Origin: an uncultured Pseudomonadota bacterium
GTDB lineage: Bacteria > SAR324 > NAC60-12
DNA: 25,362 nt
Assembly (NCBI GenBank): GCA_913020725.1
Contig: CAJWCD010000040.1
Coordinates: 1 to 25,362, forward strand
Reading direction: 5' to 3'
Below the pieces are notes generated by a model. That model was given only the letters and a program-made list of their open reading frames with translations, searched no databases and was not told the origin of the DNA. The position numbers and the translations under genes were made by a program. Positions 1 through 25,362 of the stretch are shown piece after piece (position 1 is the stretch's first letter; each line of letters starts with the position of its first letter).

Positions 1-432
1 CTCAAAAACTCGCTGATGCAGGATGAGTTGAAAGTGCTTCAGGACACCAGTGCAGGTAAGCAGTATGAGGAGATGCAACAACTCGCCCGCGCCCTCGTCC
101 TTTACCGCATTCAGGAACCACAAGCTCTGGAACTGACCCTGCTGGAGCTCATTAACGAGGGAGCGAATTTTCCAAAAGATTTGCTCATTCTCATGCTCGG
201 TGAAGCCAAGCGTCAACAAGGGATTCCGGAGGAAAGTCTGGGATTCTTTGTGACGATCATCACCGACTTTCCGGAAAGCCCCTACCTGAATTACGCGATC
301 TTCCAAGCCAGCGAACTGTTGGGTGAACTGGAGCAGCCAGACGAGCAAAGCGCCCTGCTGGATTCGCTCAGGGATGACCCCGGACGCTACGGTGAGCTTG
401 CCCGCGAACGCCTGCAAACGCTCGGTCAGTAA
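1..432 (+). CDS. 3' part of a TPR-repeat protein, resembling the C-terminus of CpoB/YbgF (5'-truncated by the window edge)
   Basis: The frame is open from base 1 (CTC AAA AAC TCG CTG ATG...) to TAA at 430-432. Helical TPR-like pattern LMLGEAKRQQG...FVTIITDFPESPYLNYAIF...GELARERLQTL; the 'F/YPxS' turn and the final 'A..RL..L' helix are typical of CpoB-like TPRs. Confidence 0.55.
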   Translation, partial: LKNSLMQDELKVLQDTSAGKQYEEMQQLARALVLYRIQEPQALELTLLELINEGANFPKDLLILMLGEAKRQQGIPEESLGFFVTIITDFPESPYLNYAIFQASELLGELEQPDEQSALLDSLRDDPGRYGELARERLQTLGQ

Positions 433-571
433 CTCACCTTCTCGTTGCGCAGTCGGCGGGTTGTTCTGCCTGCACTTGCGTTTTTTCACGTTACGCTGCA
501 ATTTTACATTTCACGGGCAGTCCCGGAGTTTCGGGAGTGGCACCCTTTTCACCATTGACAAAGGAGCAATC

Positions 572-2515
572 ATGCGGATCCACAGGAGTTTCCCCACAGG
601 AGTGCTGATTGGAGTGTTGTTGCTGTCGTTAACGCTTGGAGCCGGACTGGCTGGGGCGAAGGTGAAGGAGGAAAATTCTGGAAAAACCACGGACCAAGCC
701 TCTGGAGCAACTGCGGATGACGTGGACAAATCCGGCTGGACCAGCCTCTATCCGGAGGGGGATTTGGCCAAAATCATGGGCGAGGTGGTGACGAACCATC
801 TGGTGCAGAACAATGGCACTCAAGATTTCTACCAGGTTTCGGAGCCGGAGATCGCGTGGCTGGATGAGGTGAACCGGACGCGGCAGGAGTGGCAGTCGGA
901 ACTGTTGCGGCTGGAAATCGCCTACCGTACCGCGCTGAGCCAGCTCTTGCTTGACAAAGTGGAGCGCCACAACCGCAACTTGCTCCGCAAGCAGTACACG
1001 GACGCGATCAACCGCCTCCACGCCACCATCAATCAGCGCAATCAGCAGATTGCTGAACGCAAGAACCAGTACATCAAGGGTTTGGGAAAACTCAGTTTCT
1101 CGGCACTGGTGGTGGTGCGAGTGCCTTTTACAAAAGATCTCGCCAAGCGAGTTCAGAAACATAACCTGACCGATCACATCTTTTTGGAATCCGGCAAGGC
1201 TGCGTTGCAACAAATCCGGCGTAAGCACATGGTGCGCTTGGGGTTGCCGGTGAAGGAGGGCCTGCTCCGCAAGGTGTACCTTTATCCGGAGAACATCTCG
1301 CGCTACGACGCGCAGGCCAGGGAGTATGTGTACCTCTTCCAACGCGTGGAAGTCAGCCCTTTTGCCTTGGGAAGAGCAAACGCGAAAAAAAGGCAAAAAA
1401 CACTCAAGGTCATGGTGGATGTCCTCAGCACTCCCGAAGAGGTTGCCGCGTACTTGACGCAGGAAGGCGTGGGGGACGAGCGTTTGAGAAATTGGATTGC
1501 CAGCGAGTTGGCGTATCACGCCGCCAGCAATCGCTTTGTCCTAGGCAACACGTCCGGACGCTTGCAACAGTACGAGAACCAGCAGCAGGGCTTGCGTCGG
1601 GAAATCGCCGTCATCCTCGATCAGATTGACGAGTTGGTGCGGCAGAAAAAATCACTCAAGGACACGGGGGCCGTGGAGCGCAGTCAGGCGAAACTGGACG
1701 CCGCCGGGCAAGCTTACCGCGACCACTACTCCCGGCAGACGCTGTTCAGTTTTGCCAAGTACACGATTGACTTGGACACGGTGTATTTCAGCAACCGCCC
1801 AACTATTGGCATCGAGCAGTCCGTGGAGGTTCGTGGTGAGGAAGACAAGGCGCTCAAGATTCCGATCAGCAACCGCGACCTCAAGACCATTTTTCAGGAG
1901 ATGATGGTTTCTGCCAGCCAGACCCAGCGCTTCAACACGAAGGCCGAACCTCACCAAGTGTTCAAGGTGGAATCACTCAGCTATGGCTTGATCAAGGACC
2001 AGCTCAAGTGGACTCCTGTGAACGAGAAGTTCCGGATTCTCAAACTTGGTCGGGGCAACATCGGTTCCCGGACGCAGTATGTGGTGCATCTGGCGTTGCG
2101 TTCGGAGTTGGCAGGCTCGGCCTCCTTTCCGATGGTTTCGACAGGCGTGTGCGACTACATGGTGTTCTTTGATTCCGGAAGCCACTGGTTGACGGACAAA
2201 GCCAAGGAAGAACTGGAAAAAACGGCAGGCTGCTTGCGGAAGTATCCGGAGCAGACGGTTTATGTGAGAGGGCACACCGACTCGCGCCACGTCAAGTGGC
2301 TCAAGGGGCGCTCGGTGAGCAACAACGTTGACCTTGCCATGCGGCGAGCGGGGATGGTGTTCGATTACCTGCGCAGTTTGGGGTTTGATCCAAGGCGCTT
2401 TGAACTGGTGAGCTTCGGGGCTCGTCAGCCTGCGCAGAAAACCGGCAAGGACGAGTCGGTGAAGGGCAACCGCCGGGTACAGATTCTTTCCCGGCCGAAG
2501 ACGCTGTTTGAGTAG
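572..2515 (+). CDS. Secreted protein (647 aa) with long coiled-coil N-terminal region and C-terminal OmpA/Pal-like peptidoglycan-binding domain
   Basis: AAGGAG at 561-566 precedes ATG 572, in frame with the 323..2515 ORF. Signal peptide MRIHRSFPTGVLIGVLLLSLTLGAGLAGA. C-terminal OmpA motifs VFFDSGS..L, GHTDSR, NVDLAMRRA..V..YL...G, VSFG...P, NRRVQI. Confidence 0.85.
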   Translation: MRIHRSFPTGVLIGVLLLSLTLGAGLAGAKVKEENSGKTTDQASGATADDVDKSGWTSLYPEGDLAKIMGEVVTNHLVQNNGTQDFYQVSEPEIAWLDEVNRTRQEWQSELLRLEIAYRTALSQLLLDKVERHNRNLLRKQYTDAINRLHATINQRNQQIAERKNQYIKGLGKLSFSALVVVRVPFTKDLAKRVQKHNLTDHIFLESGKAALQQIRRKHMVRLGLPVKEGLLRKVYLYPENISRYDAQAREYVYLFQRVEVSPFALGRANAKKRQKTLKVMVDVLSTPEEVAAYLTQEGVGDERLRNWIASELAYHAASNRFVLGNTSGRLQQYENQQQGLRREIAVILDQIDELVRQKKSLKDTGAVERSQAKLDAAGQAYRDHYSRQTLFSFAKYTIDLDTVYFSNRPTIGIEQSVEVRGEEDKALKIPISNRDLKTIFQEMMVSASQTQRFNTKAEPHQVFKVESLSYGLIKDQLKWTPVNEKFRILKLGRGNIGSRTQYVVHLALRSELAGSASFPMVSTGVCDYMVFFDSGSHWLTDKAKEELEKTAGCLRKYPEQTVYVRGHTDSRHVKWLKGRSVSNNVDLAMRRAGMVFDYLRSLGFDPRRFELVSFGARQPAQKTGKDESVKGNRRVQILSRPKTLFE

Positions 2516-2539
2516 GAGAGTCAGCGGTGAGTGGGTGGC

Positions 2540-5500
2540 TCAGGCGCGTACTGGTTTGCCTTTGCGAAATTGGCCAGTGAAGGCAGACTTGCCTGCCTTG
2601 GAGAAGAGGGTGCCCTGCCCGTGCCGTTGGTTGTCCACCCACTCGCCCTCGTAGAACACCGTGCCGTCAGAGCGGTACTGTTTGCCAAGTCCGTTGAGTT
2701 TGCCCATCCGGAAGGTGCCCTCGAAGGCGAGTTGCCGCTTGGCGGTGAACACCTTGCCCTCGCCTTCACGCTGATCGGCAACCCAGCCTCCTTCGTAGAA
2801 AACCGAACCGTTGGCACGGAATTCCTTTCCGGAACCGTGGCGCTTGCCGTGCTGGAAACTCCCCTCGTAGGCCGGAACGCTCCCAGCGGCGTACAGCATT
2901 CCTGTCCCGTGGCGCTGATCCTGTGCCCATGAGCCTTCGTAGAGGAGGCTGCCGTTTTGGTAAAACTCCTTGCCAGAGCCGTTACGGAAGCCAACCTTGA
3001 AGTCGCCATGATAGGCGATGTTGCCATTATTGTAGTAGAGAACACCCGTGCCTTCGCGTTCGCCGTTGGTGTAGGTGCCTTTGTAGAAGACGAGTCCGTT
3101 TTTGTGATACTCGGCTCCCCGTCCCGTGCGGACTCCGGAGACGAAGGTGCCCTTGAAGGCAACGGAGCCATCTGGAGTGAAAATACGCCCCTCGCCGTGC
3201 CGCAAGCCCGCAAGCCACGCACCCTCGTAAAGCAGGGTGCCGCTTTCCCGGAACTCCTTGCCGGAGCCTTCCTGCTTGCCCTGCTGAAACTCGCCTTCGT
3301 AGAGCAACGCGCCGAAGGGGGAGCGGAACTGCCCCTGTCCATGCCACTGGTTGTTGGTGAACTCCCCCTCGTAGAGCAACTCCCCGTTTTTCCGGAATTC
3401 CTTGCCCTGACCTTCGCGGCTACCTTTGCGGAATTGTCCATCGAACACCAAATGGGCTTCCGGAGAAAAGAGCAAACCGCGCCCGTGTTTCTCGTTCTCC
3501 ACCCATGCGCCTTCGTAGAAAAGCGAGCCGTCCGTGCGGAATTCCTGTCCGGAGCCGTGGCGCTGGTTGCCCTTGAATGCTCCACGATAGACGGCGGTTC
3601 CCTCTAGGCTGAAGAGGATGCCCCTGCCCTGCTTTTGATCAATCTCCCAACTTCCGGTGTAGTAGAGGGTGCCGCCTTCAAGATATTCGGAGCCGAGGCC
3701 GTGACGGCGTCCTTCCCGGAATCCACCTTCATAGGCCAACTCTCCAGCGGGAGTGAGCAGTTTTCCGGAGCCGTGGCGCTGATCCTGTTCCCACTGCCCG
3801 TCGTAGAGCAAGGAGCCATCCTCACGGAACTGTTTTCCGGAGCCGTACCGCTTGGCGTCCTGAAACCCGCCCTGATACGCGAGATTGCCATTGGGGAAGT
3901 AGAGCGCACCTGTGCCATGCCAGCGTTGCTTTTTCCAAGCTCCATCATAGAGCAGGGAGCCATCCGCCCGGAACTCTTGGCCCATGCCGGAACCATTGAT
4001 GAGCTTGCCTTCAAAGGTGACACGTCCATCGGAGGCGAAGAGTTTTCCGGAACCGCTGCGCTCCCCATTCGTCCACTCGCCTTCAAAATAGAGCGAGCCA
4101 TCCTTGCGGAATTCTTGGCCGTGTCCGTGGCGTTCGTTGTCTTGGAAGCCACCCTCGAACGCGACCACGCCATCCGGAAAGAAAACCTTGCCTGCGCCGT
4201 GCTTCTGGTTCGCGCTCCAAGTGCCTTCGTAGTAGGGCGAGCCATCGTCCCGAAACTCGCGCCCTAGACCCTCGCGCTGACCGTTCCAGAAGCCACCCTC
4301 ATATGCGGTGGTGCCACTGAGGAAGAAGGCGCGGCCTTTACCGTGGCGTAGATCCTCTTGCCAGCCGCCCTCGTAGTAGAGTGAGCCGCCCTTGCGAAAT
4401 TCCTTGCCCTGCCCCTGTCGCTGTCCGTGAGCAAACTCGCCCTTGTAGAGTGGCACCTCACTGGAGTCAGTAGCGGTGTTGGAGTAGAAAAGCGTGCCCT
4501 CGCCGTGGCGCTGGCCGTCCTGCCACTGACCCGTGTAAAGGGGAGTGCCGTCGCCCTGATATTCGGTCCCGTGGCCGCGGATGGTGCCATTGCGGAACTT
4601 TCCTGCAAATGCAAGCATTCCCTTGGGGGTGAAGACTTCGCCGGGTCCGTGCCGCGTCCCGTCCTTAAATCCGCCTTGGTAGGTCAGCATGCCCTGCTCA
4701 TCGTATTCTTTGCCGGGACCGTTGAGGATGCCATCCGTGAACCGCCCTTTCAGGTAGGGGAGGCCGTTGGGATGAAACAACACTCCAACGCCCTGCTGGG
4801 CATCGTCTTGCCACTCGCCTTCGTAGTAGAGCGAACCACCGTCTCGAAATTCCTTCCCGTGTCCGTGGCGTTGTCCTGCCACGACCTCACCTTCGTAGGC
4901 AACCTGCTCCTCCCGAGTGTAGTATTTCCCGGCACCGTGATGCTCGTCATTCTGCCACTGCCCACTGTAGAAGAGTGAGCCGTCATCACGGAATTCTTCG
5001 CCGAAACCAATGCGGATGTCATCCACAAAGGCACCCACGTAAATCTTAGTTCCGTCTGGAGAGAAGAGCGAACCCTGCCCGTGCTTGCGGTCGTTCTGCC
5101 ACCCTCCGCTGTAGAAGAGCGAACCGTCATCGCGGTACTCATCTCCAGTTCCGGAGCGCATCCCGTTTGCCAAGGTTCCCCGAAAAGAAAGGGTGCTGTT
5201 GAGGGTGAAGAAGGTGCCGGAACCGTGCTTGGCACCGCTCGCAAATTCACCCTCGTAGTAAGGGGTGCCATCCTGACGGAACTCCTTGCCGATGCCTGCG
5301 GCAAGGCCATGCTGGAAACCGCCCTCGTAGAGCTTGGAGCCGTCCTCGTCGTAGAGCGCGCCTTGTCCGTGTTTTTGGTCGCCGCGCCAGTTGCCTTCGT
5401 AGTAGAGGACACCATTTTCCACGAGGTACTGGCCCGTGCCGTGGCGGTCTCCGTTTTGGAAACTTCCGGTGTAAACGTGCCCGTTGACGTAGGTGTAGGT

Positions 5501-8158
5501 GCCTTTGCCGTGCGGCTGGTCGTTTTGCCACTCGCCTTCGTAGGAGGAACCATCGGAGTGGTGGATAGTGCCTTTGCCGTGCTTTTGCCCTTCGTGCCAC
5601 GTCCCGGAGTAGTGGAGCTGGTCGTCTTTAAGAAAGTAGCTCCCCGTGCCATGCCATAATCCCTGCTGGAACTCTCCGGTGTAGCGCTCGCCATTGACGT
5701 AGGCGTAGGTGCCTTGCCCATGAGGCAGGTCGTTCTGCCACTGCCCGTCGTAGGAAGAACCATCCTCGTTGTGGATGACGCCCTGTCCGTGCTTCTGATC
5801 ATTCTGCCAGTCGCCGTCGTAGTAGAGGGTGTTCTTGTCGAGGAAATACTTGCCCGGTCCCTGCCGGATGCCGAGGTCAAACTCTCCGGAATAGCGGTTG
5901 CCGCTGGCATAGGTGTAGGTGCCGTGCCCGTGAAAGAGATCACCGACCCACTGCCCGTCGTAGGAAGAACCATCCTCGTTGTGGATGACGCCCTGTCCGT
6001 GCTTCTGATCATTCTGCCAGTCGCCGTCGTAGTAGAGGGTGTCCTTGTCGAGGAAGTACCTGCCCTGCCCTGCCCGGATGCCTTGCTTGAACCCTCCGGT
6101 GTAAATCTGCTTGTTGGTGTAGGTGTAGGTGCCTTCTCCATGAATCTGGTCACGGTCCCACATACCAACGTAGGAGGAGCCGTCTTCGTGAAAAATGGAA
6201 CCTTTCCCGTGTTTGCGGCCCTGTTCCCAACCGCCATCGTAGTGGAGGAAGTCTTTATTGAGGAAATACTTTCCCTGTCCGTGCCAGAGTCCGTTCTGGA
6301 AGGTTCCGGAGTAGGTTCGCCTATTCGCGTAGGTGTAGGTGCCTTTGCCGTGCGGTTGGTCCTTGTGCCAGATGCCAGCGTAGGAGGAGCCGTCATCAAA
6401 TTTGCTGGTGCCTTCTCCGTGCCGCAGTCCGTCTTGCCAGTCGCCCTTGTGCCACGGCTTGTTGTTCCGAAACAGTGTGCCTTCTCCATCGAGAACGAAC
6501 TCTCCTTGCCCGCTGGATTTCACTGTACCTTCATAGTGCTCGCTCTGTGCCTTGTTGATGTGCAGCGTCACCACACCCTCTGGAACTCCCATCTGCCAAC
6601 TTCCCTTGAGCAGCGGACTGCCGTCTTCGCGATGCAGGGTTCCTGCTCCGTGATAGGTTCCATCCCGAAAGCCGCCTTCGTATTGCAGGATGCCGCTGGG
6701 CCAGTAGCTCTTGCCGGAACCGTTGTACTTGCCGTCTCGGAGGTCGCCTTCGTAAACCGCACGGCGGTTGCTTCCGAACAGGATGCCCTTTCCGTGGAAC
6801 ACCACACTGCCGTTACTCTCAAGCCGGATTGGCCCTTGGTAGTGAGTTTGGTTTCCGGCATTGGTGTAAACGGTCATCTGGCCTTGGGGTTGTCCCAAAC
6901 GCCATTTCCCTTGGAGGTGGGGTCGTCCAGTCTCCCGAAAGAGGGTGCCTTTGCCGTGATACTTTCCTTTGGCGAACAGTCCCTCGTATTGTGGTCGTCC
7001 GTTTTCCCAGAAGAGCGAGCCTTTGCCCTGGTGCTGGTTTTTGGTAAATTTGCCCTTGTAGCGCACTCGTCCGTTGTCCCAGCGTTCCTGCCCGGAACCA
7101 TGCTTATGCCCGTTTTGGAACTCACCTGCGTAGGCGACTTTGCCTGTGGTTGTGAAAAGAACCCCCTGTCCGTGGAAGCGGTCGCCCTCAAGTTGCCCGA
7201 CGTAGCGTTTCTTGCCGTTGGGGTGGAAATAGAGCGTGGTGTAGGCCGCGATGCGGATTTCAGCGAATTCGACATGCTGCTTGAATCTAGAGTCGTTCCG
7301 GTGTTTTTTCAGGTAGGTTTTCCAGACGATGATCGGATTCTTGCGTAGTGCGGATTCGTTCTTTAGCGCCTCGAATTTTGCGGCATCAAATTGCAACTGC
7401 TCCAGTGCCTGTTCCGCATCGTGGATGCGGGGCTTTGCGTGAGCTTTGATCCGATAACGAGTGATGAAGCCCCGATACCCCTTGGATGTGTTCTGCCGCT
7501 TGGCTTGGGCATAATGCGTTTCAACGTCCTCAAGTTGCAACTCGGTGATGAGCACCTTTGCCTGTCTGATAAACGGCTGGGCTTCCGGAACCTTCCGGTA
7601 CTTCGCAGTGAAAAGACGAAGCGAAGCGGCGGAGTTCTTCTGCTTCGCCTGCGCAAATGCCTGCTTGAGCTTCTCGGTCGTCAACTCACTGGCCTGCTTG
7701 AGCTTTTCGGCAGTCAGTTCGCGGATACGAACGGTTGCGGTCTGCACCTCCGGGGAGTCCGGATTTGTGGATTCGTACTGCTGGAGGAACTTTCCGTAGG
7801 CCGCAATCGAGTCCTGCTGTTGCGTGGACCCAAAGTGCAACTCGCGGATGCGGTTTTCGGAGAGAGCGATTTGCTCCGTTGCCTCCGGAGTTTCCTTGTA
7901 GGCGGAGATGAAGCCTTGGTACGCCGGAACGGTGTCCTTGGCTTCGACTTGCCCGAAACGCAGTTCCCGGAGGCGGGTGCGGGACTTGGCTACGAACGGA
8001 GCCGCTTGGGGGTCCGGCTCATACTTGGTGATGTAGGCTTCGTAGGCTGGAATAGTGTCATCCTGCACCGCCTTCTCAAAATCAGGCTGGATGGTGGAAC
8101 AGCCAATCAGGAGGGCGGCAAACAGGGCTACGGCCCAGAGGGTGAATTGCGAAGGCAT
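2540..8158 (-). CDS. Giant MORN-repeat lipoprotein (1872 aa)
   Basis: Lipobox LIGC (Cys20) follows a hydrophobic stretch. About six helical repeats (D-T/S-x-x-A-Y-x-x-F/Y...R-I/L-R-E-L) lie in aa ~30-300, then a near-continuous array of Y-E-G-x-W/F-x-x-G/D-x-R/K-H-G-x-G motifs (MORN) runs from aa ~306 to the C-terminus. Confidence 0.92.
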   Translation of the reverse strand: MPSQFTLWAVALFAALLIGCSTIQPDFEKAVQDDTIPAYEAYITKYEPDPQAAPFVAKSRTRLRELRFGQVEAKDTVPAYQGFISAYKETPEATEQIALSENRIRELHFGSTQQQDSIAAYGKFLQQYESTNPDSPEVQTATVRIRELTAEKLKQASELTTEKLKQAFAQAKQKNSAASLRLFTAKYRKVPEAQPFIRQAKVLITELQLEDVETHYAQAKRQNTSKGYRGFITRYRIKAHAKPRIHDAEQALEQLQFDAAKFEALKNESALRKNPIIVWKTYLKKHRNDSRFKQHVEFAEIRIAAYTTLYFHPNGKKRYVGQLEGDRFHGQGVLFTTTGKVAYAGEFQNGHKHGSGQERWDNGRVRYKGKFTKNQHQGKGSLFWENGRPQYEGLFAKGKYHGKGTLFRETGRPHLQGKWRLGQPQGQMTVYTNAGNQTHYQGPIRLESNGSVVFHGKGILFGSNRRAVYEGDLRDGKYNGSGKSYWPSGILQYEGGFRDGTYHGAGTLHREDGSPLLKGSWQMGVPEGVVTLHINKAQSEHYEGTVKSSGQGEFVLDGEGTLFRNNKPWHKGDWQDGLRHGEGTSKFDDGSSYAGIWHKDQPHGKGTYTYANRRTYSGTFQNGLWHGQGKYFLNKDFLHYDGGWEQGRKHGKGSIFHEDGSSYVGMWDRDQIHGEGTYTYTNKQIYTGGFKQGIRAGQGRYFLDKDTLYYDGDWQNDQKHGQGVIHNEDGSSYDGQWVGDLFHGHGTYTYASGNRYSGEFDLGIRQGPGKYFLDKNTLYYDGDWQNDQKHGQGVIHNEDGSSYDGQWQNDLPHGQGTYAYVNGERYTGEFQQGLWHGTGSYFLKDDQLHYSGTWHEGQKHGKGTIHHSDGSSYEGEWQNDQPHGKGTYTYVNGHVYTGSFQNGDRHGTGQYLVENGVLYYEGNWRGDQKHGQGALYDEDGSKLYEGGFQHGLAAGIGKEFRQDGTPYYEGEFASGAKHGSGTFFTLNSTLSFRGTLANGMRSGTGDEYRDDGSLFYSGGWQNDRKHGQGSLFSPDGTKIYVGAFVDDIRIGFGEEFRDDGSLFYSGQWQNDEHHGAGKYYTREEQVAYEGEVVAGQRHGHGKEFRDGGSLYYEGEWQDDAQQGVGVLFHPNGLPYLKGRFTDGILNGPGKEYDEQGMLTYQGGFKDGTRHGPGEVFTPKGMLAFAGKFRNGTIRGHGTEYQGDGTPLYTGQWQDGQRHGEGTLFYSNTATDSSEVPLYKGEFAHGQRQGQGKEFRKGGSLYYEGGWQEDLRHGKGRAFFLSGTTAYEGGFWNGQREGLGREFRDDGSPYYEGTWSANQKHGAGKVFFPDGVVAFEGGFQDNERHGHGQEFRKDGSLYFEGEWTNGERSGSGKLFASDGRVTFEGKLINGSGMGQEFRADGSLLYDGAWKKQRWHGTGALYFPNGNLAYQGGFQDAKRYGSGKQFREDGSLLYDGQWEQDQRHGSGKLLTPAGELAYEGGFREGRRHGLGSEYLEGGTLYYTGSWEIDQKQGRGILFSLEGTAVYRGAFKGNQRHGSGQEFRTDGSLFYEGAWVENEKHGRGLLFSPEAHLVFDGQFRKGSREGQGKEFRKNGELLYEGEFTNNQWHGQGQFRSPFGALLYEGEFQQGKQEGSGKEFRESGTLLYEGAWLAGLRHGEGRIFTPDGSVAFKGTFVSGVRTGRGAEYHKNGLVFYKGTYTNGEREGTGVLYYNNGNIAYHGDFKVGFRNGSGKEFYQNGSLLYEGSWAQDQRHGTGMLYAAGSVPAYEGSFQHGKRHGSGKEFRANGSVFYEGGWVADQREGEGKVFTAKRQLAFEGTFRMGKLNGLGKQYRSDGTVFYEGEWVDNQRHGQGTLFSKAGKSAFTGQFRKGKPVRA
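5738..6055. repeat. Near-exact intragenic direct repeat, 210-nt offset (5738-5845 vs 5948-6055)
   Basis: 5738-5832 and 5948-6042 are identical over 95 nt, extending to 108 nt with one mismatch. Both copies encode YFLDK(D/N)TLYYDGDWQNDQKHGQGVIHNEDGSSYDGQW. Confidence 0.95.
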
Positions 8159-8196
8159 ATCTTGAATTTATGAGTCAACGACAACTTACAAAGGAT

Positions 8197-8213
8197 AGCA
8201 AAGCCTAAGCCAA
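8197..8213 (-). promoter_or_regulatory. Putative sigma54 (RpoN) -24/-12 promoter for the MORN lipoprotein gene
   Basis: The minus strand reads TTGGCTTAGGCTTTGCT: TGGC-N7-TTGCT with exact GG-N10-GC spacing, about 40 nt upstream of the ATG at 8158. Confidence 0.6.
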
Positions 8214-8326
8214 ATGCCCATGTGACCATAAGCATTGCAGGCTGCCATTGGCTGAAAGCTTGAAGGTCGCAATTAAGAAACTGATCAAAAGCACGTTTTC
8301 GGGATACTTTGAAAACCGGGCTTGCC

Positions 8327-8355
8327 TTGAAATTTCGGTGGGAACAAGACAGAAT
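8327..8355 (+). promoter_or_regulatory. Putative sigma70 promoter for ispG
   Basis: TTGAAA (8327-8332), 17-nt spacer, CAGAAT (8350-8355), ending about 38 nt before the ispG ATG. Confidence 0.4.
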
Positions 8356-8393
8356 TCGGAGGTGTCCAAATCCTTCGTTTCCAATGTTCCGAC

Positions 8394-16233: not shown

Positions 16234-18329
16234 CCGTGTCCGAACACCCCGTCCTCCGCAAAGAACTTTCGCTGCTCAACGTTTACACGATTGCGACCGG
16301 CACTACGCTCAGTGCAGGATTCTTCCTGCTTCCCGGAATTGCGTTTCGGGAGGCGGGGCCAGCGGTAGTGCTGAGTTACCTGATTGCCGCCGTTCCACTG
16401 GTTCCGGCGATGTTCAGCATTGCGGAACTGGCCACTGCGATGCCACGAGCGGGAGGCGCGTACTATTTCCTTGATCGCAGCCTGGGTCCGCTGGTCGGCA
16501 CCATCGGCGGGTTGGGCACTTGGCTTTCCCTCAACTTCAAGACGGCTTTCGCGCTCATCGGCATGGGCGCGTACCTCGGCATCTTCTGGCCGGAACTGCC
16601 TGCGGTTCCGGTCGCCATGGGATTGGCGGTTTTGTTTGGGTTCCTGAACCTGTTTGGGGCGCGGAAGAGCGGCACGTTCCAAGTCGTGATGGTGCTGGTG
16701 CTGCTCGTCATTCTGGCCGCATTTCTGGGCTGGGGGCTTCCGGAGGTGCAACCGAGCCATTTCGACGGTTTCTTTGCTCACGGCACGGCGGCCTTGTTCT
16801 CGACTGCCGGGCTGGTGTACGTGAGCTATGTGGGCGTTACCAACATCGCCAGCATCGCCGAGGAAATTCGTGACCCGGAACGAAACCTGCCCCTCGGCAT
16901 CTTTCTTGCCATCGGCACCGCCTTGGTGGTTTACGGGTTGGGCACCTATGTGATTGTGGGGCTGCTGCCGGGTCCGGAACTCGCTCAAAGCCTCACGCCT
17001 GTGGCCGGGGCGGCGGATGTCTTGCTGGGCACTCCAGGCAAGGGGATCGTCACCATTGCCGCGCTGTTGGCGTTTGCCTCGGTGGCAAATGCGGGCATCC
17101 TCAGCGCATCGCGCTACCCGCTGGCCATGAGCCGGGACCATCTCATTCCGAGACACTTCGCCCGCATCACCACCAGAGGCGCCCCCGTTTTCGGCATCTT
17201 GGTCACAGTCGCCGCGATCCTCGTGTTTGTGAGTTGCCTAGACATCACCCGCATCGTTAAACTCGCCAGCGCGTTTCAATTGTTGATGTTCTCGTTGCTG
17301 TGCGTGGCGGTCATCGTGATGCGCGAAAGCGGGCTGGAGTCCTACGACCCGGGGTTCCGGTCGCCGTTCTACCCGTGGATGCAGGTGTTTGGCGTCTTTG
17401 CCCCGCTCGTGTTGATTGTGGAGATGGGGATTTTCCCGATCCTCTTCTCACTGAGCCTGATTGCGTTGGGCACGGTGTGGTATCTCGCCTACGCCCGCTC
17501 CCGCGTGATCCGCAGCGGTGCGATCTACCACCTTTTCGCCCGACTCGGTGAACAGCGCTATGCGGGTTTGGACACGGAACTCCGCAACATCCTGAAGGAG
17601 AAGGGAGTGCGCGAGGAAGATTCCTTCGACGAGGTGGTGGCGCGGGCGGAGGTGATCGACCTTCCGGATTTCAGCACGTTTGAGGACATTGTTCAGCAAG
17701 CCTCGAACGCGCTTGGTTCGAAAGTGCAAACGCTTCCGGAAACGCTTGCCAGAGATTTTCTGGAGGGCAGCCGCATTGGGGCCACTCCGGTGTCGCACGG
17801 AGCCGTCTTGCCGCACACTCGCATCGCAGGGCTTGCTCAGTCGGAATTGGTGCTGGTGCGCTGCCGGGAAGGCCGCTATGTTGAGGTTCCCGGACCTTCC
17901 GGAGGTCTGACCCGCACGGGACCAGTCCATGCGTTTTTCTTCATTGTCAGTCCCAACGAAAACCCCGGACAGCACCTGCGCATCCTCGCGCAAATCGCCG
18001 GACGGGTGGACGAATCGAACTTTCTAGAGGAGTGGTTGGCCGCTGCGGACGATCAGGAACTCAAGGAAAACCTGCTCCGCGACGAACGCTTCCTCTCCAT
18101 CAAACTGAAGGCAAGCACCGCCTCCAGTGCCTTGGTTGGGCGAACGCTCCGGGAAGTTGCTATGCCGGAAGGTTGCCTCGTTGCCCTCATCCGCCGGGGT
18201 TCCGAAACCTTGGTCCCGCAAGGCAACACGACACTGCACGAAAATGATCGACTCACCCTCATCGGCGACGCCAAAGGCATCCGCCGCCTGCAAGACCAGT
18301 ACGTCAATGGCTCCCCCGCGATTTCCTAA
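16230..18329 (+). CDS. APC-family amino acid/cation permease fused to a PTS EIIA-2 domain and a C-terminal TrkA-C (RCK_C) domain
   Basis: About 12 TM segments with LRKELSLL, GFFLLPG, AELATAMPRAGGAY, IAEEIRDPERNLP, SRYPLAMSRD. These are followed by EIIA-like GATPVSHGAVLPHTR...HLRILAQIA and RCK_C LVGRTLREVAMPEGCLVALIRRG....PQGNTTLHENDRLTLIG. The GTG start overlaps the lolA stop (GTGA). Confidence 0.88.
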   Translation: MTVSEHPVLRKELSLLNVYTIATGTTLSAGFFLLPGIAFREAGPAVVLSYLIAAVPLVPAMFSIAELATAMPRAGGAYYFLDRSLGPLVGTIGGLGTWLSLNFKTAFALIGMGAYLGIFWPELPAVPVAMGLAVLFGFLNLFGARKSGTFQVVMVLVLLVILAAFLGWGLPEVQPSHFDGFFAHGTAALFSTAGLVYVSYVGVTNIASIAEEIRDPERNLPLGIFLAIGTALVVYGLGTYVIVGLLPGPELAQSLTPVAGAADVLLGTPGKGIVTIAALLAFASVANAGILSASRYPLAMSRDHLIPRHFARITTRGAPVFGILVTVAAILVFVSCLDITRIVKLASAFQLLMFSLLCVAVIVMRESGLESYDPGFRSPFYPWMQVFGVFAPLVLIVEMGIFPILFSLSLIALGTVWYLAYARSRVIRSGAIYHLFARLGEQRYAGLDTELRNILKEKGVREEDSFDEVVARAEVIDLPDFSTFEDIVQQASNALGSKVQTLPETLARDFLEGSRIGATPVSHGAVLPHTRIAGLAQSELVLVRCREGRYVEVPGPSGGLTRTGPVHAFFFIVSPNENPGQHLRILAQIAGRVDESNFLEEWLAAADDQELKENLLRDERFLSIKLKASTASSALVGRTLREVAMPEGCLVALIRRGSETLVPQGNTTLHENDRLTLIGDAKGIRRLQDQYVNGSPAIS

Positions 18330-18347
18330 CTCACTGCTTCCAACACC

Positions 18348-19097
<750 letters not shown>

Positions 19098-19102
19098 ACG
19101 GC

Positions 19103-19903
19103 ATGTTTCCCACCCTCTTCTCTCTGGAAATCCCGTTTCTGGACCTCACGCTGGAGCCGAGGTTTTACGGGCTGTTTTACGCCATCGCCATCCTAATCGG
19201 CTCCCGGATTGTGCTGTCCGAAGTGCAACGCCGCGAGTTGGGTCTCAGCGACGACGACGCGATGAACCTCACGCTTTACGCCTTTCTCGTCGGACTCCTC
19301 GGTGCCCGGACGTATGAGATCGTGATGGAATGGTCCAACTACTACGCGCATCAACCCTTCTGGAAGGTGTTTGCCGTTTGGCAGGGCGGGCTTGCCATCC
19401 ACGGGGGTATCATCGGCGGTAGCCTCTACACAATCTTCTACTGCCGACGCAAGCGGATTTCCCAAGCGCATTTTCTGGACATCGCCGCGCTTTGCATGAT
19501 TCAGGGGCAAGCGATTGGACGCTGGGGGAACTTCACCAACGGCGAGGCCGCCGGCCCCATGACGGACTTCTGGACCGGAATCGTCTTTCCTCCCGGAACC
19601 GTGATTGACCGCTATGCCCAAGGACAGCCGGTGCATCCGACCATGATCTACGAATCGCTGGGGAACGCGGTCCTCTTCCTCATCCTCTGGCGGTTGCGGC
19701 TCAAGAATTTTCCTCCCGGAATGCTCTGCGCCCTCTACCTGATCGGCTACTCGGTCCTGCGCTCGGCCCTCACACCCTTCCGGATGGACAATCAATACCT
19801 CACTCTCGGCAACACCGTCGTCCTCGCCCCCTACGCCGTCAGCGTGGTGCTGACGCTGGTGGCCTTGGCGTGGATTCACCAAATGCGCAAACATGCCAAC
19901 TGA
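19103..19903 (+). CDS. lgt: Prolipoprotein diacylglyceryl transferase
   Basis: FYGL, GAR.Y, WQGGLAIHGG, GQAIGRWGNFTNGE, HPTMIYES. Confidence 0.96.
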   Translation: MFPTLFSLEIPFLDLTLEPRFYGLFYAIAILIGSRIVLSEVQRRELGLSDDDAMNLTLYAFLVGLLGARTYEIVMEWSNYYAHQPFWKVFAVWQGGLAIHGGIIGGSLYTIFYCRRKRISQAHFLDIAALCMIQGQAIGRWGNFTNGEAAGPMTDFWTGIVFPPGTVIDRYAQGQPVHPTMIYESLGNAVLFLILWRLRLKNFPPGMLCALYLIGYSVLRSALTPFRMDNQYLTLGNTVVLAPYAVSVVLTLVALAWIHQMRKHAN

Positions 19904-21782
19904 AGTTCCCCTGACCTGGCTCTCGACGGATCGGACTCCACAATCCGCTATTGCCGCCGGGGATCGCATTTTCTTGCAACTCCTGCTGTGGTCGTTGCTC
20001 TTTGCGGGCTACTCCAGTTTTTTTGTGTTCTCGGCCTCGGTTGCGTCTGCAACGAAGTGGCAGATGGGCATCAGCACGGTGCTGAACTCCCTGTTCCTCT
20101 TCACTTTGCTTCAGGGTATTTTCTTCATGCTCCGCCTCTTTGGAACAACCCTCGTCCAGTGGCTGCTGCTGGCCTTCTGCGGACTTTCGATTCCGCTCTT
20201 GGTGCTTGACTTCCTCGTCTTCCAGCAGTTCAAGTTCCACATCAACAGCTTTGTGCTGAAGGTGATACTCCAGCCCAACATCTTCGAAACCCTCAATTTG
20301 GGTTGGCGGGAGGGGGCGACCGCATTGCTGGTGCTGGCCGTGGGGATGTTGGCCGTGCTGGCGGTTTGGCGCGGCACCGCCGTTGTGGGGGGGACGCCGC
20401 TCCGCAAGGCCGTTGCCGGACCTTGGCGTAAGCTGGGCATCTGCCTGCTGATTTTTCTGGCAACGCTGGGAGACAAGGTGTTTTTTGCATGGCAGTTGTT
20501 TCAGGTAAACACAGAGATTTATCTCGTGGGAAGGCGCGTACCCCTCTACATCCCGGTGCAGATGAGCCGGGGGTTCGAGGAGTTCGGCTTCACCAAACCC
20601 CAAGCGGCTGGCCCCGTGGACACCCGCCGCTCCCAGACGGTGCGCTACCCCTTGCAGCCCGTTTCCTTTCCGGAAGCTCAGCCGTCGTACCCCAACATCG
20701 TGCTGCTGATTTCCGAGAAAATGCGCCATGACATCATCAACCTTGAAGTCACGCCCCGGATCCTGCAACACGTCCGCTGCTGCTTCAGCAAGTTCCGGAA
20801 TCACTACTCGGCGTCGAACGCTTCCGCAGGGGGCTTGTTCGGCATGTTCTACAGCCTGCCCGCCAACTATCAGGACGCCTTTGGCAAAGCACAGGTGACT
20901 CCGGTACTGCTGGATTTGCTGGAAGCCCGCAACTACGAATTCGCCCTGCTCGCCAAAGAGGACTTGGGCTACTTTGGCACGGACGAGATCATCTTCAACA
21001 AACTCCGCAGCCACATCCGGGATCGGTTCCCCTCGGAAGCCGAGATGATTGACCATGCCCTTGGAGTGCTGGAATCCCGCAAGCAGCGCAAGACGGCGCG
21101 TCCGTTGTTCCTGCTGATCATTCACGATGCCCCCCACCATCCGCAGTTTGTGAGCGAGCAGTACCAGCGCTTTCAGCCCGCTGAGTACATGCCGCTCTTC
21201 AATCCGGACCTGCCAGAACACCAAGTGCGGGCCGCCAACCAGTTCAAGAACGCCTACACGCTGGTGGACGATGAAATGGGGCGCATGTTGGACGCCCTGA
21301 AGGACCACGGGTATTTCGACAACTCGGTTGTCGTCGTCACTGGAGATCACGGTCACGAGCAGTACGAACACGGCCACTGGGGCCATGCCTCCGCCTTCAC
21401 GAAAGAACAAACGCAGGTCAGCTTCTTCCTGCACCTTCCGGGGCAGGTTGAGTATGAGGAGGTGTCCCGGCTCACCTCGCACTTGGACCTCGTGCCGACC
21501 TTCTTGGAGGTGCTGAACGAACCACTGCCCTTGCAGCATTTCGCTCTGGGGGAATCCCTGCTGTCTCCGGCCAAGCGGGAGTACATCATGATGGGCGGGA
21601 TGGCCAACAGTGTGCTGTTTGATGGCCGGGTCAAGATTGACTACACCCCCTTCGAGGGCATTGCGCTCTACCGGGTGGTGGACCAAGACGACGAGCCGCT
21701 TGCCGACTCCGATGCCGTGATTGTGGAGTACACCCCCTTGCTGCTGGACATGTTCGAGAAGCTTGGACGCTTCTACCGCTGA
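19893..21782 (+). CDS. Inner-membrane protein with periplasmic alkaline-phosphatase/sulfatase-fold domain, YejM/PbgA (DUF3413)-like
   Basis: About five N-terminal TM helices incl. D..VFQQFKFHIN, linker 'VRYPLQP', then PNIVLL, HYSASNAS..GLFGMFYSL, DAPH, DNSVVVVTGDHG, WGH, LTSHLDLVPT. The start overlaps the lgt stop. Confidence 0.8.
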   Translation: MPTEVPLTWLSTDRTPQSAIAAGDRIFLQLLLWSLLFAGYSSFFVFSASVASATKWQMGISTVLNSLFLFTLLQGIFFMLRLFGTTLVQWLLLAFCGLSIPLLVLDFLVFQQFKFHINSFVLKVILQPNIFETLNLGWREGATALLVLAVGMLAVLAVWRGTAVVGGTPLRKAVAGPWRKLGICLLIFLATLGDKVFFAWQLFQVNTEIYLVGRRVPLYIPVQMSRGFEEFGFTKPQAAGPVDTRRSQTVRYPLQPVSFPEAQPSYPNIVLLISEKMRHDIINLEVTPRILQHVRCCFSKFRNHYSASNASAGGLFGMFYSLPANYQDAFGKAQVTPVLLDLLEARNYEFALLAKEDLGYFGTDEIIFNKLRSHIRDRFPSEAEMIDHALGVLESRKQRKTARPLFLLIIHDAPHHPQFVSEQYQRFQPAEYMPLFNPDLPEHQVRAANQFKNAYTLVDDEMGRMLDALKDHGYFDNSVVVVTGDHGHEQYEHGHWGHASAFTKEQTQVSFFLHLPGQVEYEEVSRLTSHLDLVPTFLEVLNEPLPLQHFALGESLLSPAKREYIMMGGMANSVLFDGRVKIDYTPFEGIALYRVVDQDDEPLADSDAVIVEYTPLLLDMFEKLGRFYR

Positions 21783-21794
21783 TCCTAGTTTGCT

Positions 21795-21823
21795 TTGTCT
21801 TTGCGCTGGCAGTGTGGTACTTA
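21795..21823 (+). promoter_or_regulatory. Possible sigma70 promoter for the DUF6883/DUF4926 pair
   Basis: TTGTCT (21795-21800), 17-nt spacer ending TGTGG, TACTTA (21818-21823). The -10 lacks the usual final T. Confidence 0.25.
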
Positions 21824-21842
21824 TTGACCTGATTGGTCTGCG

Positions 21843-22174
21843 ATGATCCTAGACGTTCCTCCTGCAAAAATACTGGATACCTGCTTGATGAAACCCATCC
21901 TGATGGAGCAAGCAAAGCCGTTTTTTTCAGGGGCTATGGTTTTCGCAGAGATCGCTGGCACGAATTGGCTGAAGCTCTCAAGCAACACGCTCTTGATCAT
22001 GGCTCCGGAGTACAGGTACCGTCCCCTTTCGGAGTTTGGTATGTTGTGGAAGGAACGATGATTACTCCTGACAATCGGTTTCCCTGAGTGCGCTCCATCT
22101 GGTTTGAGCCTCTGGAAAGCACGATCCTGCGATTGGTGAGTGCCTATCCGATGCCTCCAAAAACAAGTCGCTGA
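21843..22174 (+). pseudogene. DUF6883-like (putative toxin) gene disrupted by a 1-nt frameshift (~21871) and an in-frame TGA (22085-22087)
   Basis: Joining frames gives MILDVPPAKI/TGYLLDETHPDGASKAVFFRGYGF....W..LAEALKQH.....SPFGVWYVVEGTMITPDNRFP*VRSIWF......RLVSAYP. The YLL...HP.G..KA.FF, PFG..Y.VEG...TPD, VRS.W and RLV.AYP motifs match this family as I recall it. It ends at TGA 22172-22174. Confidence 0.78.
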
Positions 22175-22175
22175 A

Positions 22176-22418
22176 ATGGCATCAAATTATCCGGAACACA
22201 GTCGAGTCGCATTGCAAGAGGATCTGCCCGGACACGGACTGAGCGCGGGAGATGTGGGAACGGTGGTCACAGTGCATCATCACCGTAAAGGCTACGAGGT
22301 CGAATTCTGCACTTTATTCGGCGAGACCGCTGCCATCGTCAGCCTGTATCCGCAGCAAATCCGCTCGCTTCGCCCCAACGAGCTGGCACATGCACGTGAA
22401 TTGGCGACGGCCTCGTAA
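22176..22418 (+). CDS. DUF4926-family protein (putative antitoxin/partner), 80 aa
   Basis: MASNYPEHSRVALQEDLPGHGLSAGDVGTVV....GYEVEF..LFGETAAIVSL...QIR......AHAR carries the DUF4926 signature DLP..GL..GDVGTVV / YEVEF. The ATG lies 1 nt after the upstream stop. Confidence 0.88.
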   Translation: MASNYPEHSRVALQEDLPGHGLSAGDVGTVVTVHHHRKGYEVEFCTLFGETAAIVSLYPQQIRSLRPNELAHARELATAS

Positions 22419-22473
22419 CCCTCTTCAGGAACGCCTCTTATCCCTCGTGGATTCAACCTAATCACGTTTCACT

Positions 22474-25362
22474 ATGACTTCATTGACCAACCTCCTCCAA
22501 CAAGACGACTTCCACCAGCGACACATCGGCTTTCAAGGCGCCGACCGTGACGCGATGCTCCAAGCGGTGGTGGCCGACTCTCTCAATGATTTGATGGATC
22601 AGGCGGTGCCGCCGTCCATCCGGATGTCGGGCGAACTGGAACTTCCGGGGCCACGAACCGAAGCGCAAGCCCTTGCGGAACTGGCCGAGATGGCGGGCAA
22701 AAACCAGGTGCTGAAATCCTACATCGGCATGGGGTACCACGACACTATCACCCCCAGCGTGATCCTCCGGAATCTGCTGGAGCATCCCGGTTGGTACACC
22801 GCCTACACGCCGTATCAGGCCGAGATTTCGCAGGGGCGGTTGGAAATGCTGCTGAATTTTCAGCAGTTGATCATGGACCTCACGGGTATGGACGTCGCCA
22901 ATGCCTCCCTGCTGGACGAAGCCACGGCAGCGGCGGAAGCCATGACCTTCTGCAAGCGCGTCTCCCGTAGCAAGTCGAACCGCTTTTTTGTCACGGATGA
23001 TTGCCACCCGCAAACGCTGGATGTCCTCAAAACCCGTGCGGAACCACTGGGGCTGGAACTGGTCGTCGGCAATCCGTGGGACGGGTGCGAGGACGCCTAT
23101 GGTGTGTTGCTCCAGTATCCCGGAACCTTTGGGGACATCTCCAGTTTGGGAGAACTGTCGGCACAGTGGCAGGAACGTGGAGCAATGGTGGCGGTGGCCG
23201 CCGATTTGCTGAGCCTCGTCCTGCTCAAGCCTCCGGGGGAGTTCGGAGCGGATGTGGTGGTGGGCAGTGCCCAGCGCTTTGGTGTGCCGATGGGCTACGG
23301 TGGCCCTCATGCGGGATTCTTCGCAACACGGGATGCTCACAAACGCGCCATGCCGGGGCGGTTGATCGGGGTGTCGGTGGATCGGCGTGGGAAACTGGCC
23401 CTGCGCATGGCCCTACAAACCCGCGAACAGCACATCCGCCGCGAGAAGGCGACCAGCAACATCTGCACGGCGCAAGTGCTGCTGGCAAACGTTGCAGCAG
23501 CGTATGCGCTCTACCACGGTCCGGAAGGGCTGACCACCATCGCCCAGCGGGTGCATCACCTCACCTATTTGCTCGCCTGTGGACTCCGGAAAGCTGGACT
23601 GGACACGAACGCAACTTTCTTCGACACCCTCACCGTGAATGTTCCGGACGCCAATACGACTCAGCAACGCTCGGTTGCTGTCGGCATGAACCTCCGGAAG
23701 ATCGACTCGAACCGAGTCGGAATCAGCTTTGACGAGGCCACCACCGCCGAGGACGTCACCCGATTGTTGAAGGTGTTGTGTCCGGATTCAACCGCGCCCT
23801 CCATTGCAGAACTCACACAGGAGTTGGAGCAGGCGGGGTTAGGCATTCCGCAGGGCATGCGGCGCACTTCCGAATTCCTCACGCATCCGGTCTTCCACGA
23901 GCATCGTTCGGAAACCTCGATGATGCGCTACCTCAAGCGGCTGGAGGGCAAGGACATCGCCTTGGACCGGGCGATGATCCCCTTGGGGTCTTGCACAATG
24001 AAGCTCAACGCCGCCACCGAAATGCGGCCCGTCACTTGGCCAGAGTTTGGGCGGATGCACCCCTTTGTGCCCATCGAGCAGGCCACCGGCTATGCCGAAC
24101 TGATCGGCGGCTTGGAGGACATGCTCTGCCAACTCACAGGGTTTGACGCAATCTGCATGCAGCCCAACTCCGGAGCGCAGGGCGAATATGCGGGCTTGCT
24201 GGTGATCCGCAAGTACCACCAAAGCCGAGGTGAGGGGCACCGCGAAGTCTGTCTGATTCCCAGTTCCGCGCACGGCACCAATCCCGCCAGTGCCGCAATG
24301 CAGGGCATGAAGGTAGTCATCGTCAAATGCGATTCTGACGGCAACATTGACATGGCCGACCTCCGGGGAAAGGCCGAGAAACATGCCGACCGCCTTGCCG
24401 CCCTGATGATTACCTACCCCTCCACCCACGGGGTTTTTGAGCCGACCATCACGGAAATCTGCGAGATCATCCACCAACACGGCGGGCAGGTTTACATGGA
24501 TGGGGCCAACCTCAACGCCCTCGTTGGCATCGCACAACCCGGACTTTACGGGGCAGACGTTTCGCACATGAACCTGCACAAAACCTTCTGCATTCCGCAT
24601 GGGGGCGGCGGTCCCGGCATGGGGCCGATCGGCATGAAGGCGCATTTGGCTCCGTTCATGGCGAGCCACGCGGTGGTGCCGCCTCCGGGAACCGATCCGG
24701 CCCAATCCGCCATTTCCGCCGCGCCGTGGGGCAGTCCGAGCGTCCTTCCCATCTCGTGGGCCTACCTCCGCATGATGGGCGGTTCCGGACTCAAACTCGC
24801 CACACAATCGGCGATTTTGGCGGCGAACTACCTAGCCCAGCGGTTGGAGGGCGCGTTTCCGGTTCTCTACACCGGGCAGAATAATCGTGTGGCCCACGAG
24901 TGCATCCTTGACATCCGAGGCATCAAAGAGTCATCCGGAATCACCGAAGAGGATGTTGCCAAGCGACTCATCGATTACGGATTCCACGCGCCCACGATGT
25001 CGTGGCCTGTGCCCGGAACCCTGATGATCGAACCGACCGAAAGCGAACCCAAGGCCGAGTTGGACCGCTTCTGCAACGCGATGCTGAACATCCGCGAGGA
25101 AATCGCCAAGGTCGAATCCGGAATCTGGAGCCGTGAGGACAACCCTTTGAAAAACGCGCCACACACGCTCGATGATCTCATGGACGAGTGGACGCATTCG
25201 TACAGCAAGGCCGAGGCCGTCTATCCGGCCCCCGCCCTCAAGCACAACAAGTACTGGTCACCTGTCAATCGGATCGACAATGTTTACGGGGATCGCAACG
25301 TGGTGTGTTCGTGTCCGCCTCCGGAAGCCTACGAGGATGGGGTTTTAGAGTATGAAGCCTAG
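22474..25362 (+). CDS. gcvP: Glycine dehydrogenase (decarboxylating), single-chain P-protein of the glycine cleavage system
   Basis: [82 protein letters not shown]-lysine motif [18 protein letters not shown]-like GDRNVVCSC. Stop TAG at the window end. Confidence 0.98.

Follow-up and report, generated by a model that had tools for sequence, protein, structure and literature searches.

The stretch analysed here, a 25,362-nucleotide contig of an uncultured SAR324 bacterium (CAJWCD010000040.1, assembly GCA_913020725.1; hereafter the window), carries many dispersed copies of the hexamer palindrome TCCGGA, whose genome-wide abundance and spacing along the DNA helix are the subject of this work. The window contains 65 copies (2.56/kb) where base composition predicts 8.0, in agreement with an earlier note on this DNA, which had counted about 65 against an estimate of about 8 and whose cited coordinates were each confirmed. 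Sixty copies lie within called genes on both strands (frames 0/1/2: 10/8/26 on the + strand and 9/2/5 on the – strand); all three codon frames are occupied, and the three frame examples given originally hold. Of the five outside called genes, those at 9696, 9732 and 12513 are intergenic, as had been reported, and the remaining two, at 22004 and 22190, fall in small open reading frames (ORFs; DUF6883 and DUF4926). The host genes (Table 1) include no candidate effector, as already stated in that note. The stretch was found in 19 of 23 listed runs, mainly marine, seawater or vent metagenomes; of 120 proteins clustering with its RNase PH and ValS, the 5 with names are called 'SAR324 cluster bacterium' or 'Deltaproteobacteria bacterium'. 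A metagenome scan gave 2 loci, and contigs from 4 runs showed 186 differences from the window over 20 kb, a number too small to support allele-frequency analysis. With only 14 site pairs within 110 bp, the closest 36 bp apart, the window alone is too small to show helical phasing, and the results below are for the genome.

Table 1. Features of the window (positions in the 25,362-nucleotide stretch)
Feature	Coordinates	Strand	Remarks
Dispersed TCCGGA copies	225..25325		65 copies, a sample of the genome-wide pattern; in genes of both strands and all frames
Two intergenic copies between ispG and valS	9696..9737		36 bp apart (~3.4 turns, near opposite faces)
Intergenic copy downstream of valS	12513..12518
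Five copies inside gcvP	23520..23786		neighbour gaps 65, 58, 50 and 88 bp
Host genes (1)	16..25362		OmpA-domain protein, MORN-repeat protein, ispG, valS, ATP-dependent ligase, Gfo/Idh oxidoreductase, lptF, lolA
Host genes (2)	16..25362		APC permease, RNase PH, lgt, sulfatase-like protein, DUF6883/DUF4926 pair, gcvP
MORN-repeat protein	2540-8158	-	predicted 1,872-residue lipoprotein, largely MORN repeats
Short ATP-dependent DNA ligase	12642-13547	+	PRK09125 type; adjoins valS
Permease	16230-18329	+	amino-acid permease fused to PTS EIIA-2 and TrkA-C domains
DUF6883 and DUF4926 small ORF pair	21833-22418	+	between the sulfatase-like gene and gcvP; DUF6883 ORF spans positions 14-84 of the 110-position profile

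The pattern in the window is representative of the whole genome: it is ordinary for a stretch of this DNA and unusual as a genome property. In the draft genome analysed (G000; 3.45 Mb in 204 contigs, the longest 92.6 kb, 93.3% complete, with the window as contig C40), TCCGGA is the commonest hexamer (7,675 copies in 3,446,541 bases, 2.23/kb), and its observed/expected ratio was 7.35, 6.51, 3.37, 2.43 and 1.00 under Markov models of order 0, 1, 2, 3 and 4, respectively. It has the highest order-2 ratio (3.37) among the 64 palindromic hexamers; the next six are all A/T-only, and the GC-rich ones are mostly strongly avoided, with ratios down to 0.08. Many GC-rich six-base palindromes stand at 0.07–0.25 of expectation. 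When synonymous codons were shuffled (codon nulls used 2,285 of 2,886 called genes, taken from a purpose-made caller), 6,359 copies were observed against 1,840 expected (3.46-fold, the top of all hexamers; 3.70, 1.91 and 4.29 by frame), and a stricter null that also kept the pairing of third base and next base gave 3.52 overall (3.37, 2.91 and 3.84 by frame). Hence the genome-wide comparison with Markov and codon nulls confirmed an enrichment that is not limited to one frame, and the excess of about 3.5-fold over two protein-preserving nulls upholds the original argument that amino-acid usage alone is an unlikely explanation. The earlier note had also expected non-palindromic neighbours to lack comparable enrichment; this holds for the two it named, TCCGGT and ACCGGA (only 1.32 and 1.23), but another neighbour reaches 2.27.

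Site density is 2.46/kb inside called genes and 1.23/kb outside, and 0.17–0.97/kb in windows below about 47% GC versus 2.0–2.6/kb elsewhere. The low-GC, motif-sparse windows are probably foreign DNA; most low-GC bins keep a share of T at the flank of about 0.5, and composition thus accounts for some of their lower density. At the kilobase scale the gaps between sites are near random (coefficient of variation 1.06; 665 gaps >1 kb versus 701 expected). Chi sites are likewise short over-represented words with a five-base unit; TCCGGA, however, behaves as a dyad and no strand polarity was detected (share 0.498, rank 461 of 512 five-base classes), in what is a weak test on draft contigs, whose skew is weak (most polar word 0.452).

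The excess does not attach to the hexamer as a whole but to a CCGG core with independently favoured flanks. Genome-wide, the base 5' of CCGG is T in a fraction of 0.515 of cases and in 0.513 when the far flank is already A, but only in 0.228–0.243 if the last core base is altered. The hexamer is thus the product of two half-sites with no influence on each other, hence its order-4 Markov ratio of 1.00. At four-fold synonymous sites the favoured flank base has a share of 0.60–0.64 versus 0.21–0.23 in controls, and each flank base is worth log-odds of about 1.5–1.8, similar per half-site. The excess is limited to T-flanked cores, CCGG with other flanks being below expectation (0.69–0.80 of the codon null). 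Deviants by one base are commoner when the outer base is changed (3,236–6,791 copies) than at inner positions (984–4,382), and C-to-T neighbours are not depleted, lying above expectation at the inner position (1.57, 1.51) and near it at the outer (0.99, 1.07). In a sample of a second genome of the genus (G001) the half-site share was 0.466, yet full sites stood at about 0.76 of the independent expectation.

Neighbouring sites avoid the same face of the helix, which is the strongest clue to what the motif does and was absent from the earlier note. Among pairs 18–66 bp apart, 110 were on the same face (18 distances) and 317 on opposite faces (14 distances), a ratio of 0.27 (0.23 and 0.32 when the contigs were split into two halves), against 1.08 ± 0.11 (minimum 0.81) in 200 frame-keeping jitters of the sites. 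The ratio is the lowest of 239 abundant hexamer classes; the 213 classes without parts of the motif start at 0.68 (median 1.07). Pair counts fell to 0.11, 0.11 and 0.19 of the distant mean at 20–22, 31–33 and 41–43 bp and were 1.05–1.52 of it half a turn off these troughs. The phasing amplitude followed site strength: it was 0.53 for full-full pairs, 0.22 for full-half pairs and 0.06 for half-half pairs, and was at noise level for cores without flanks. It recurred in samples of G001 (1.09, 0.50) and of the third genome, G002 (0.53, 0.26), so that every genome of the genus shows it; of the distant sites in G001 and G002, no more than 30% and 52%, respectively, are common with G000, which makes these partly independent evidence. 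No periodic base composition was detected in the flanks of the sites (single-base amplitude ≤0.006), where only motif parts were periodic.

Phasing was present for every frame difference (trough/peak 0.47, 0.18 and 0.22) and also outside genes (18 same-face versus 50 opposite-face pairs, 0.36), which excludes protein helices as its cause. A codon, amino-acid or repeat artefact, which the order-4 ratio of 1.00 and a 9-bp pair peak seen in all core classes might suggest, is refuted by the 3.5-fold excess over the codon nulls in all frames, by the synonymous-site shares (0.61–0.64 versus 0.22) and by this cross-frame phasing, and pairs at 8–10 bp have no dominant spacer (the commonest in 5 copies); we give it next to no probability. 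Synonymous sites show the effect directly. The base that completes a site was present at four-fold sites in 832 of 1,338 cases far from other sites (0.62; controls about 0.2) and in 380 of 534 with an opposite-face neighbour 36–80 bp away (0.71), but in only 13 of 49 (0.27), near background, with a same-face neighbour 12–35 bp away. A logistic fit to 6,139 synonymous sites gave a period of 10.5–10.6 bp, a decay over 60–100 bp, a cosine term of –1.66 ± 0.16, a sine term of –0.05 ± 0.14 and a short-range repulsion of –2.63 ± 0.26. In each of the three orientations, pairs of half-sites show a single phase relative to the core dyad. The same-face penalty is –1.66 for full sites and about –0.6 to –0.9 for half-sites; the benefit is additive per flank but the penalty is much larger for full sites, and two processes may therefore be at work. 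A homotypic interaction that is centred on the dyad, free of orientation and has the period of relaxed B-DNA implies that something must read two sites at once.

Runs of A in G000 (A-tracts, ≥4) are themselves out of helical phase with one another, with a period of ~10.5 bp (amplitude 0.087, z 6.2; within genes z 14.1) and little loss of amplitude up to 110 bp, opposite to the customary in-phase signal. Every orientation and each of four random quarters of the genes showed it; support from the G001 and G002 samples is weaker. A general avoidance of in-phase bends by the genome, with TCCGGA favoured for an intrinsic shape and no protein involved, would agree with this anti-phasing and with the sign of the small motif/A-tract cross-term, which is that of opposite bends. 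However, the motif effect is about six times the A-tract effect, the cross-term falls far under the geometric mean of the two, and 69 of 69 listed unrelated loci (of 80 listed, those of 10 kb or more) lack such enrichment, none exceeding 0.87 TCCGGA/kb (best rank 24). We consider an intrinsic shape preference quite improbable.

The trait was then placed among 41 genomes of the order (sizes rounded), in which G000–G002 form genus g1. Nine of them, in genera g1, g2 and g12, have 1.2–2.9 sites/kb; three g5 genomes have 0.66–1.07 and the other 29 have 0.02–0.60. Together with the codon nulls, this density in 9 of 41 genomes bears out the claim of a real, genome-wide, lineage-specific palindrome. 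The four genera group together in single-gene trees (support 84/92 for RNase PH and 90/91 for the methyltransferase described below, neither value being starred). GC content in 20-kb samples is 60–63% in g2 and 43–44% in g12, so motif abundance survived a large shift in composition. As a separate observation, PF01555 has 21–26 matches in each of G007, G039, G041 and G044 versus 0–3 in the motif-rich genera.

An uptake or recombination-promoting signal for natural transformation, spread by molecular drive, would fit the presence of ComEC in 5 of 5 genomes and the lower motif density in low-GC, probably foreign windows. HIP1, the highly iterated palindrome of cyanobacteria, has been tied to transformation (PMC13756078), and a signal of this kind is now proposed for it. 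The motif-poor G004 has ComEC as well, the flank share near 0.5 in most low-GC bins makes the density drop partly one of composition, and drive leaves the same-face avoidance unexplained. Known uptake signals are 9–10 bases long, which also counts against this explanation, and it seems hardly likely.

Site gain and loss were compared at four-fold sites among G000–G002 under a reversible model (12 comparisons, multipliers relative to control), with alignments to G000 of 89.4% over 658,987 bases for G002 and 83.6% over 589,674 bases for G001 (938 and 794 kb supplied). Gains of motif bases exceeded control in 11 of the 12, by factors of 1.19–3.31, and stood at 0.64 in the other; losses were reduced to 0.41–0.83 of control in 11, with 1.15 in the remaining comparison. 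The weakest position was the outer C. Polarised counts in the three genomes, over 161,812 common bases with 23,211 four-fold sites, were mostly underpowered and gave p<0.01 for gains in 3 of 10 position tests and for losses in 1. The motif is under fixation bias, in a pattern that fits selection or biased repair/conversion alike. Full sites were conserved against G002 at 0.665 versus a mean of 0.542 (rank 134 of 2,178 control words), but showed no such advantage against G001. Turnover by phase was suggestive only (23 shared and 36 not, versus 114 and 113). At the inner CG, loss by transversion was reduced (0.03–0.05 versus 0.07–0.16 in controls), while loss by transition was at control level (0.14–0.17 versus 0.12–0.20). 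The transition losses show no raised decay from 5-methylcytosine at the inner CG; since they are not lowered as transversion losses are, a modest excess of such decay is possible.

Genes that might write, repair or read the motif were searched for, negatives referring to G000 at its 93.3% completeness unless other genomes are named. The cognate C5 methyltransferase (PF00145) that a methylation system of the kind first suggested would call for was found in 0 of 3 g1 genomes, and outside g1 as short fragments only, in 1 of 3 g2 and 1 of 3 g12 genomes; nor was a Vsr-like nuclease found, the other gene proposed for the search. Together with the undepleted C-to-T neighbours, this departs from a Dcm/Vsr very-short-patch signature. 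DUF559 had no match, and dnaA none over the cut-off. SeqA and MutH were each found in 0 of 5 genomes, where the E. coli positive control matched, and dndC occurred in 1 of 41 genomes, none in family f1 and none in G000 (the Ssp type was not searched). The EcoRII-C profile gave 0 of 41, but control genomes gave no match either. G000 does carry MutS, ComEC, three HU/IHF genes, GyrA and ParC. The sole match to a ribbon-helix-helix profile, a small DUF6290-like protein, was dropped as a candidate. Separately, no five-base word in G000 is more depleted than the Dcm/EcoRII-type site (0.11–0.17 of the codon null; order-3 ratio 0.21; g2 samples 0.80–0.90), although no C5 methyltransferase was found there.

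The sole near-complete DNA-methyltransferase-like gene found lies on contig C49 (L001:514-2253, – strand). Its product has motif I, a helical insert and NPPY in that order, that of an alpha-order amino-methyltransferase, behind an arginine-rich disordered N-terminus, and best matches Type II methyltransferase models (PADLOC E 9e-28). A structural model (predicted local distance difference test score, pLDDT, 88) gave only distant fold matches, the best a tRNA methyltransferase at a template modelling (TM) score of 0.37, so that its substrate may be DNA or RNA. PF02086 matched only this gene, and the one match to PF02384 was a fragment on contig C168, at its end; a motif scan of the 2,886 called proteins yielded no two-motif DNA methyltransferase candidate beyond the C49 protein and one other, which we take to be RsmD-like. 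The C49 gene is single-copy and its tree follows that of RNase PH, as under vertical inheritance. Near full-length copies occur in 31 of 41 genomes, the four of motif-poor genus g3 all among them; the motif-rich G019 (87% complete) yielded none. Since motif-poor relatives have it too, carrying the gene does not account for the trait, though its target may have changed along the branch.

These genes bear on a ratchet of the type that Elhai put forward for HIP1, in which the orphan amino-methyltransferase would mark CCGG and a repair factor that reads the mark together with the 5' T on either strand would keep the strand carrying it, so that sites build up with no need for selection. The independent half-sites and outer-base deviations match its prediction, as set out in the available part of PMC4390886, and the genome has both MutS and a Type II-like methyltransferase that is single-copy and vertically inherited. 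CCGG is also over-represented in Helicobacter genomes that encode CCGG systems, according to the portions of PMC4687349 and PMC10423294 to hand. However, the C49 gene is present in motif-poor g3, is not found in motif-rich G019 and may act on DNA or RNA, its best fold match being a tRNA methyltransferase; no C5 enzyme, Vsr, DUF559 or MutH was found; saturation at the kilobase scale is missing (665 gaps >1 kb versus 701 expected); and the model lacks any helical term, the phasing being on this view a penalty of its own or a steric feature of the enzyme that marks or reads the site. The ratchet is therefore rather unlikely in our judgement, though it ranks first among the alternatives.

TCCGGA could instead be the preferred cleavage or loading site of gyrase or topoisomerase IV. 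Type II enzymes cut with a four-base stagger and wrap DNA, and E. coli gyrase prefers T before the cut. The T-core-A geometry with independent halves would suit such an enzyme, a four-base core would match the stagger, a wrap of flanking DNA would give face dependence over the observed 60–100 bp, and both GyrA and ParC are present. The flanks have no periodic base composition, however, and motif-poor relatives have the two genes too; this is an improbable explanation.

An abundant palindrome with helix-face avoidance points to a DNA-binding protein that shapes the sequence of the whole genome. The spacing statistics are observations, from which we infer the protein, its action and its benefit. 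TCCGGA would be the best site of an abundant two-fold symmetric factor of this SAR324 lineage, of nucleoid type or DNA-processing, whose binding may be mildly useful anywhere in the chromosome. The bound protein would bend DNA or cover one face; two sites bound in phase would then sum to a costly kink or exclude each other, and a half-turn offset would cancel the effect. A weakly favoured, two-fold symmetric protein of this sort is our leading candidate, held tentatively and at somewhat less than an even chance, and the chromosome-level signal proposed in the earlier note is plausible.

Several observations weigh against such a protein. The period that defines the face classes was taken from the same data. 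Half-sites beside a same-face site give up just a portion of their advantage (74 of 169, 0.44, versus 0.57), where pure occlusion predicts otherwise. Phasing between the motif and A-tracts, predicted if the two share curvature, is weak (amplitude 0.012, z 0.6; logistic term +0.16 ± 0.08). In the g2 and g12 samples, small at 70–90 kb, the phasing signal was within noise, and the cause of abundance may thus differ from that of phasing. The searches yielded no binding protein: the histone fold and SeqA were each found in 0 of 5 genomes, and three HU/IHF copies occur in motif-rich and motif-poor genomes alike. Raised gains and lowered losses are equally expected from biased repair or conversion, and full-site conservation against G001 is no better than average (0.355 versus 0.369, rank 1,357 of 2,500).

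Comparison with described systems places the motif near HIP1 (GCGATCGC) and the alternate highly iterated palindromes of cyanobacteria, which, in the available text of PMC4390886 and PMC5861425, are likewise the commonest palindrome of the genome, dispersed, in all frames, lineage-wide, and built of a core with two separately gained outer bases. The HIP1-like character first suggested thus stands for abundance, frames and outer-base deviants, and fails for the cognate methyltransferase, the level of enrichment and saturation: no cognate C5 enzyme was found in g1 and kilobase-scale gaps are near random. HIP1 is enriched 15–300-fold and TCCGGA, a hexamer, 3.4–7.3-fold; the latter misses the 16-fold threshold for HIP1-rich genomes given in the part of PMC5861425 available (7.35, 3.37 and 3.5), a comparison of a hexamer with an octamer under different nulls. 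A strong anti-phase spacing of 10.5 bp is not described for HIP1 in those portions of the two papers. In Helicobacter, over-representation of CCGG accompanies predicted or proven CCGG restriction-modification genes (PMC4687349 and PMC10423294, as far as available); the four-base core is the same and is in both an unexplained exception among avoided palindromes, but in SAR324 only T-flanked cores are in excess and no CCGG restriction-modification system was found. E. coli GATC, read by Dam and SeqA, is also a short dispersed palindrome with a reader sensitive to the helix face of neighbours (PMC2691817, in part); SeqA prefers same-face pairs whereas the SAR324 genome avoids them, and SAR324 has no SeqA or MutH match and, as a Dam-type enzyme, no more than a weak motif match. 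The general 10–11 bp periodicity of prokaryotic genomes is likewise a helix-repeat signal in pair spacing, and the analysis in the accessible part of PMC7537859 fixes the phase with like words in phase; the SAR324 signal concerns a single hexamer, its copies offset by half a turn, at an amplitude of about 0.5. A literature search that left most subscription papers outside found nothing relevant on TCCGGA as a highly iterated palindrome, on SAR324 methylation motifs, on over-represented palindromes out of helical phase or under the enzyme names, and SAR324 did not appear in the four supplementary files of PMC9516812 or in the main text of PMC8919816, as far as these were available. The helix-face rule, not found in the literature examined, adds to HIP-like behaviour.

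Apart from the motif, a dispersed repeat of ~150 bases, 80–91% identical, occurs at L094:288-457 (G002) and on at least 10 G000 contigs.

The function of highly iterated palindromes has been a question for three decades, in large part since abundance by itself cannot separate selection from biased repair. Here the sites interact via helix geometry, so something physical reads them in pairs, and pairwise reading yields sharp predictions on which spacings bind, bend or cut. The pair-distance test can be transferred to HIP1, Helicobacter CCGG and GATC genomes. Methods that assume a fixed-phase periodicity would miss such an out-of-phase signal. For this abundant, mostly uncultured ocean lineage, the result is a helix-phase constraint on synonymous codon choice throughout the genome. 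A bolder version of the protein hypothesis, possible but doubtful, is an undescribed SAR324 chromosome-organising system in which one sequence-specific bending protein sets neighbouring bends on alternating sides, with the A-tracts anti-phased too. If true, some 7,700 strong and 14,600 weak sites would be written into synonymous codons, and a bacterial DNA sequence would then encode a zig-zag chromatin fibre, an arrangement opposite to the customary in-phase curvature signal.

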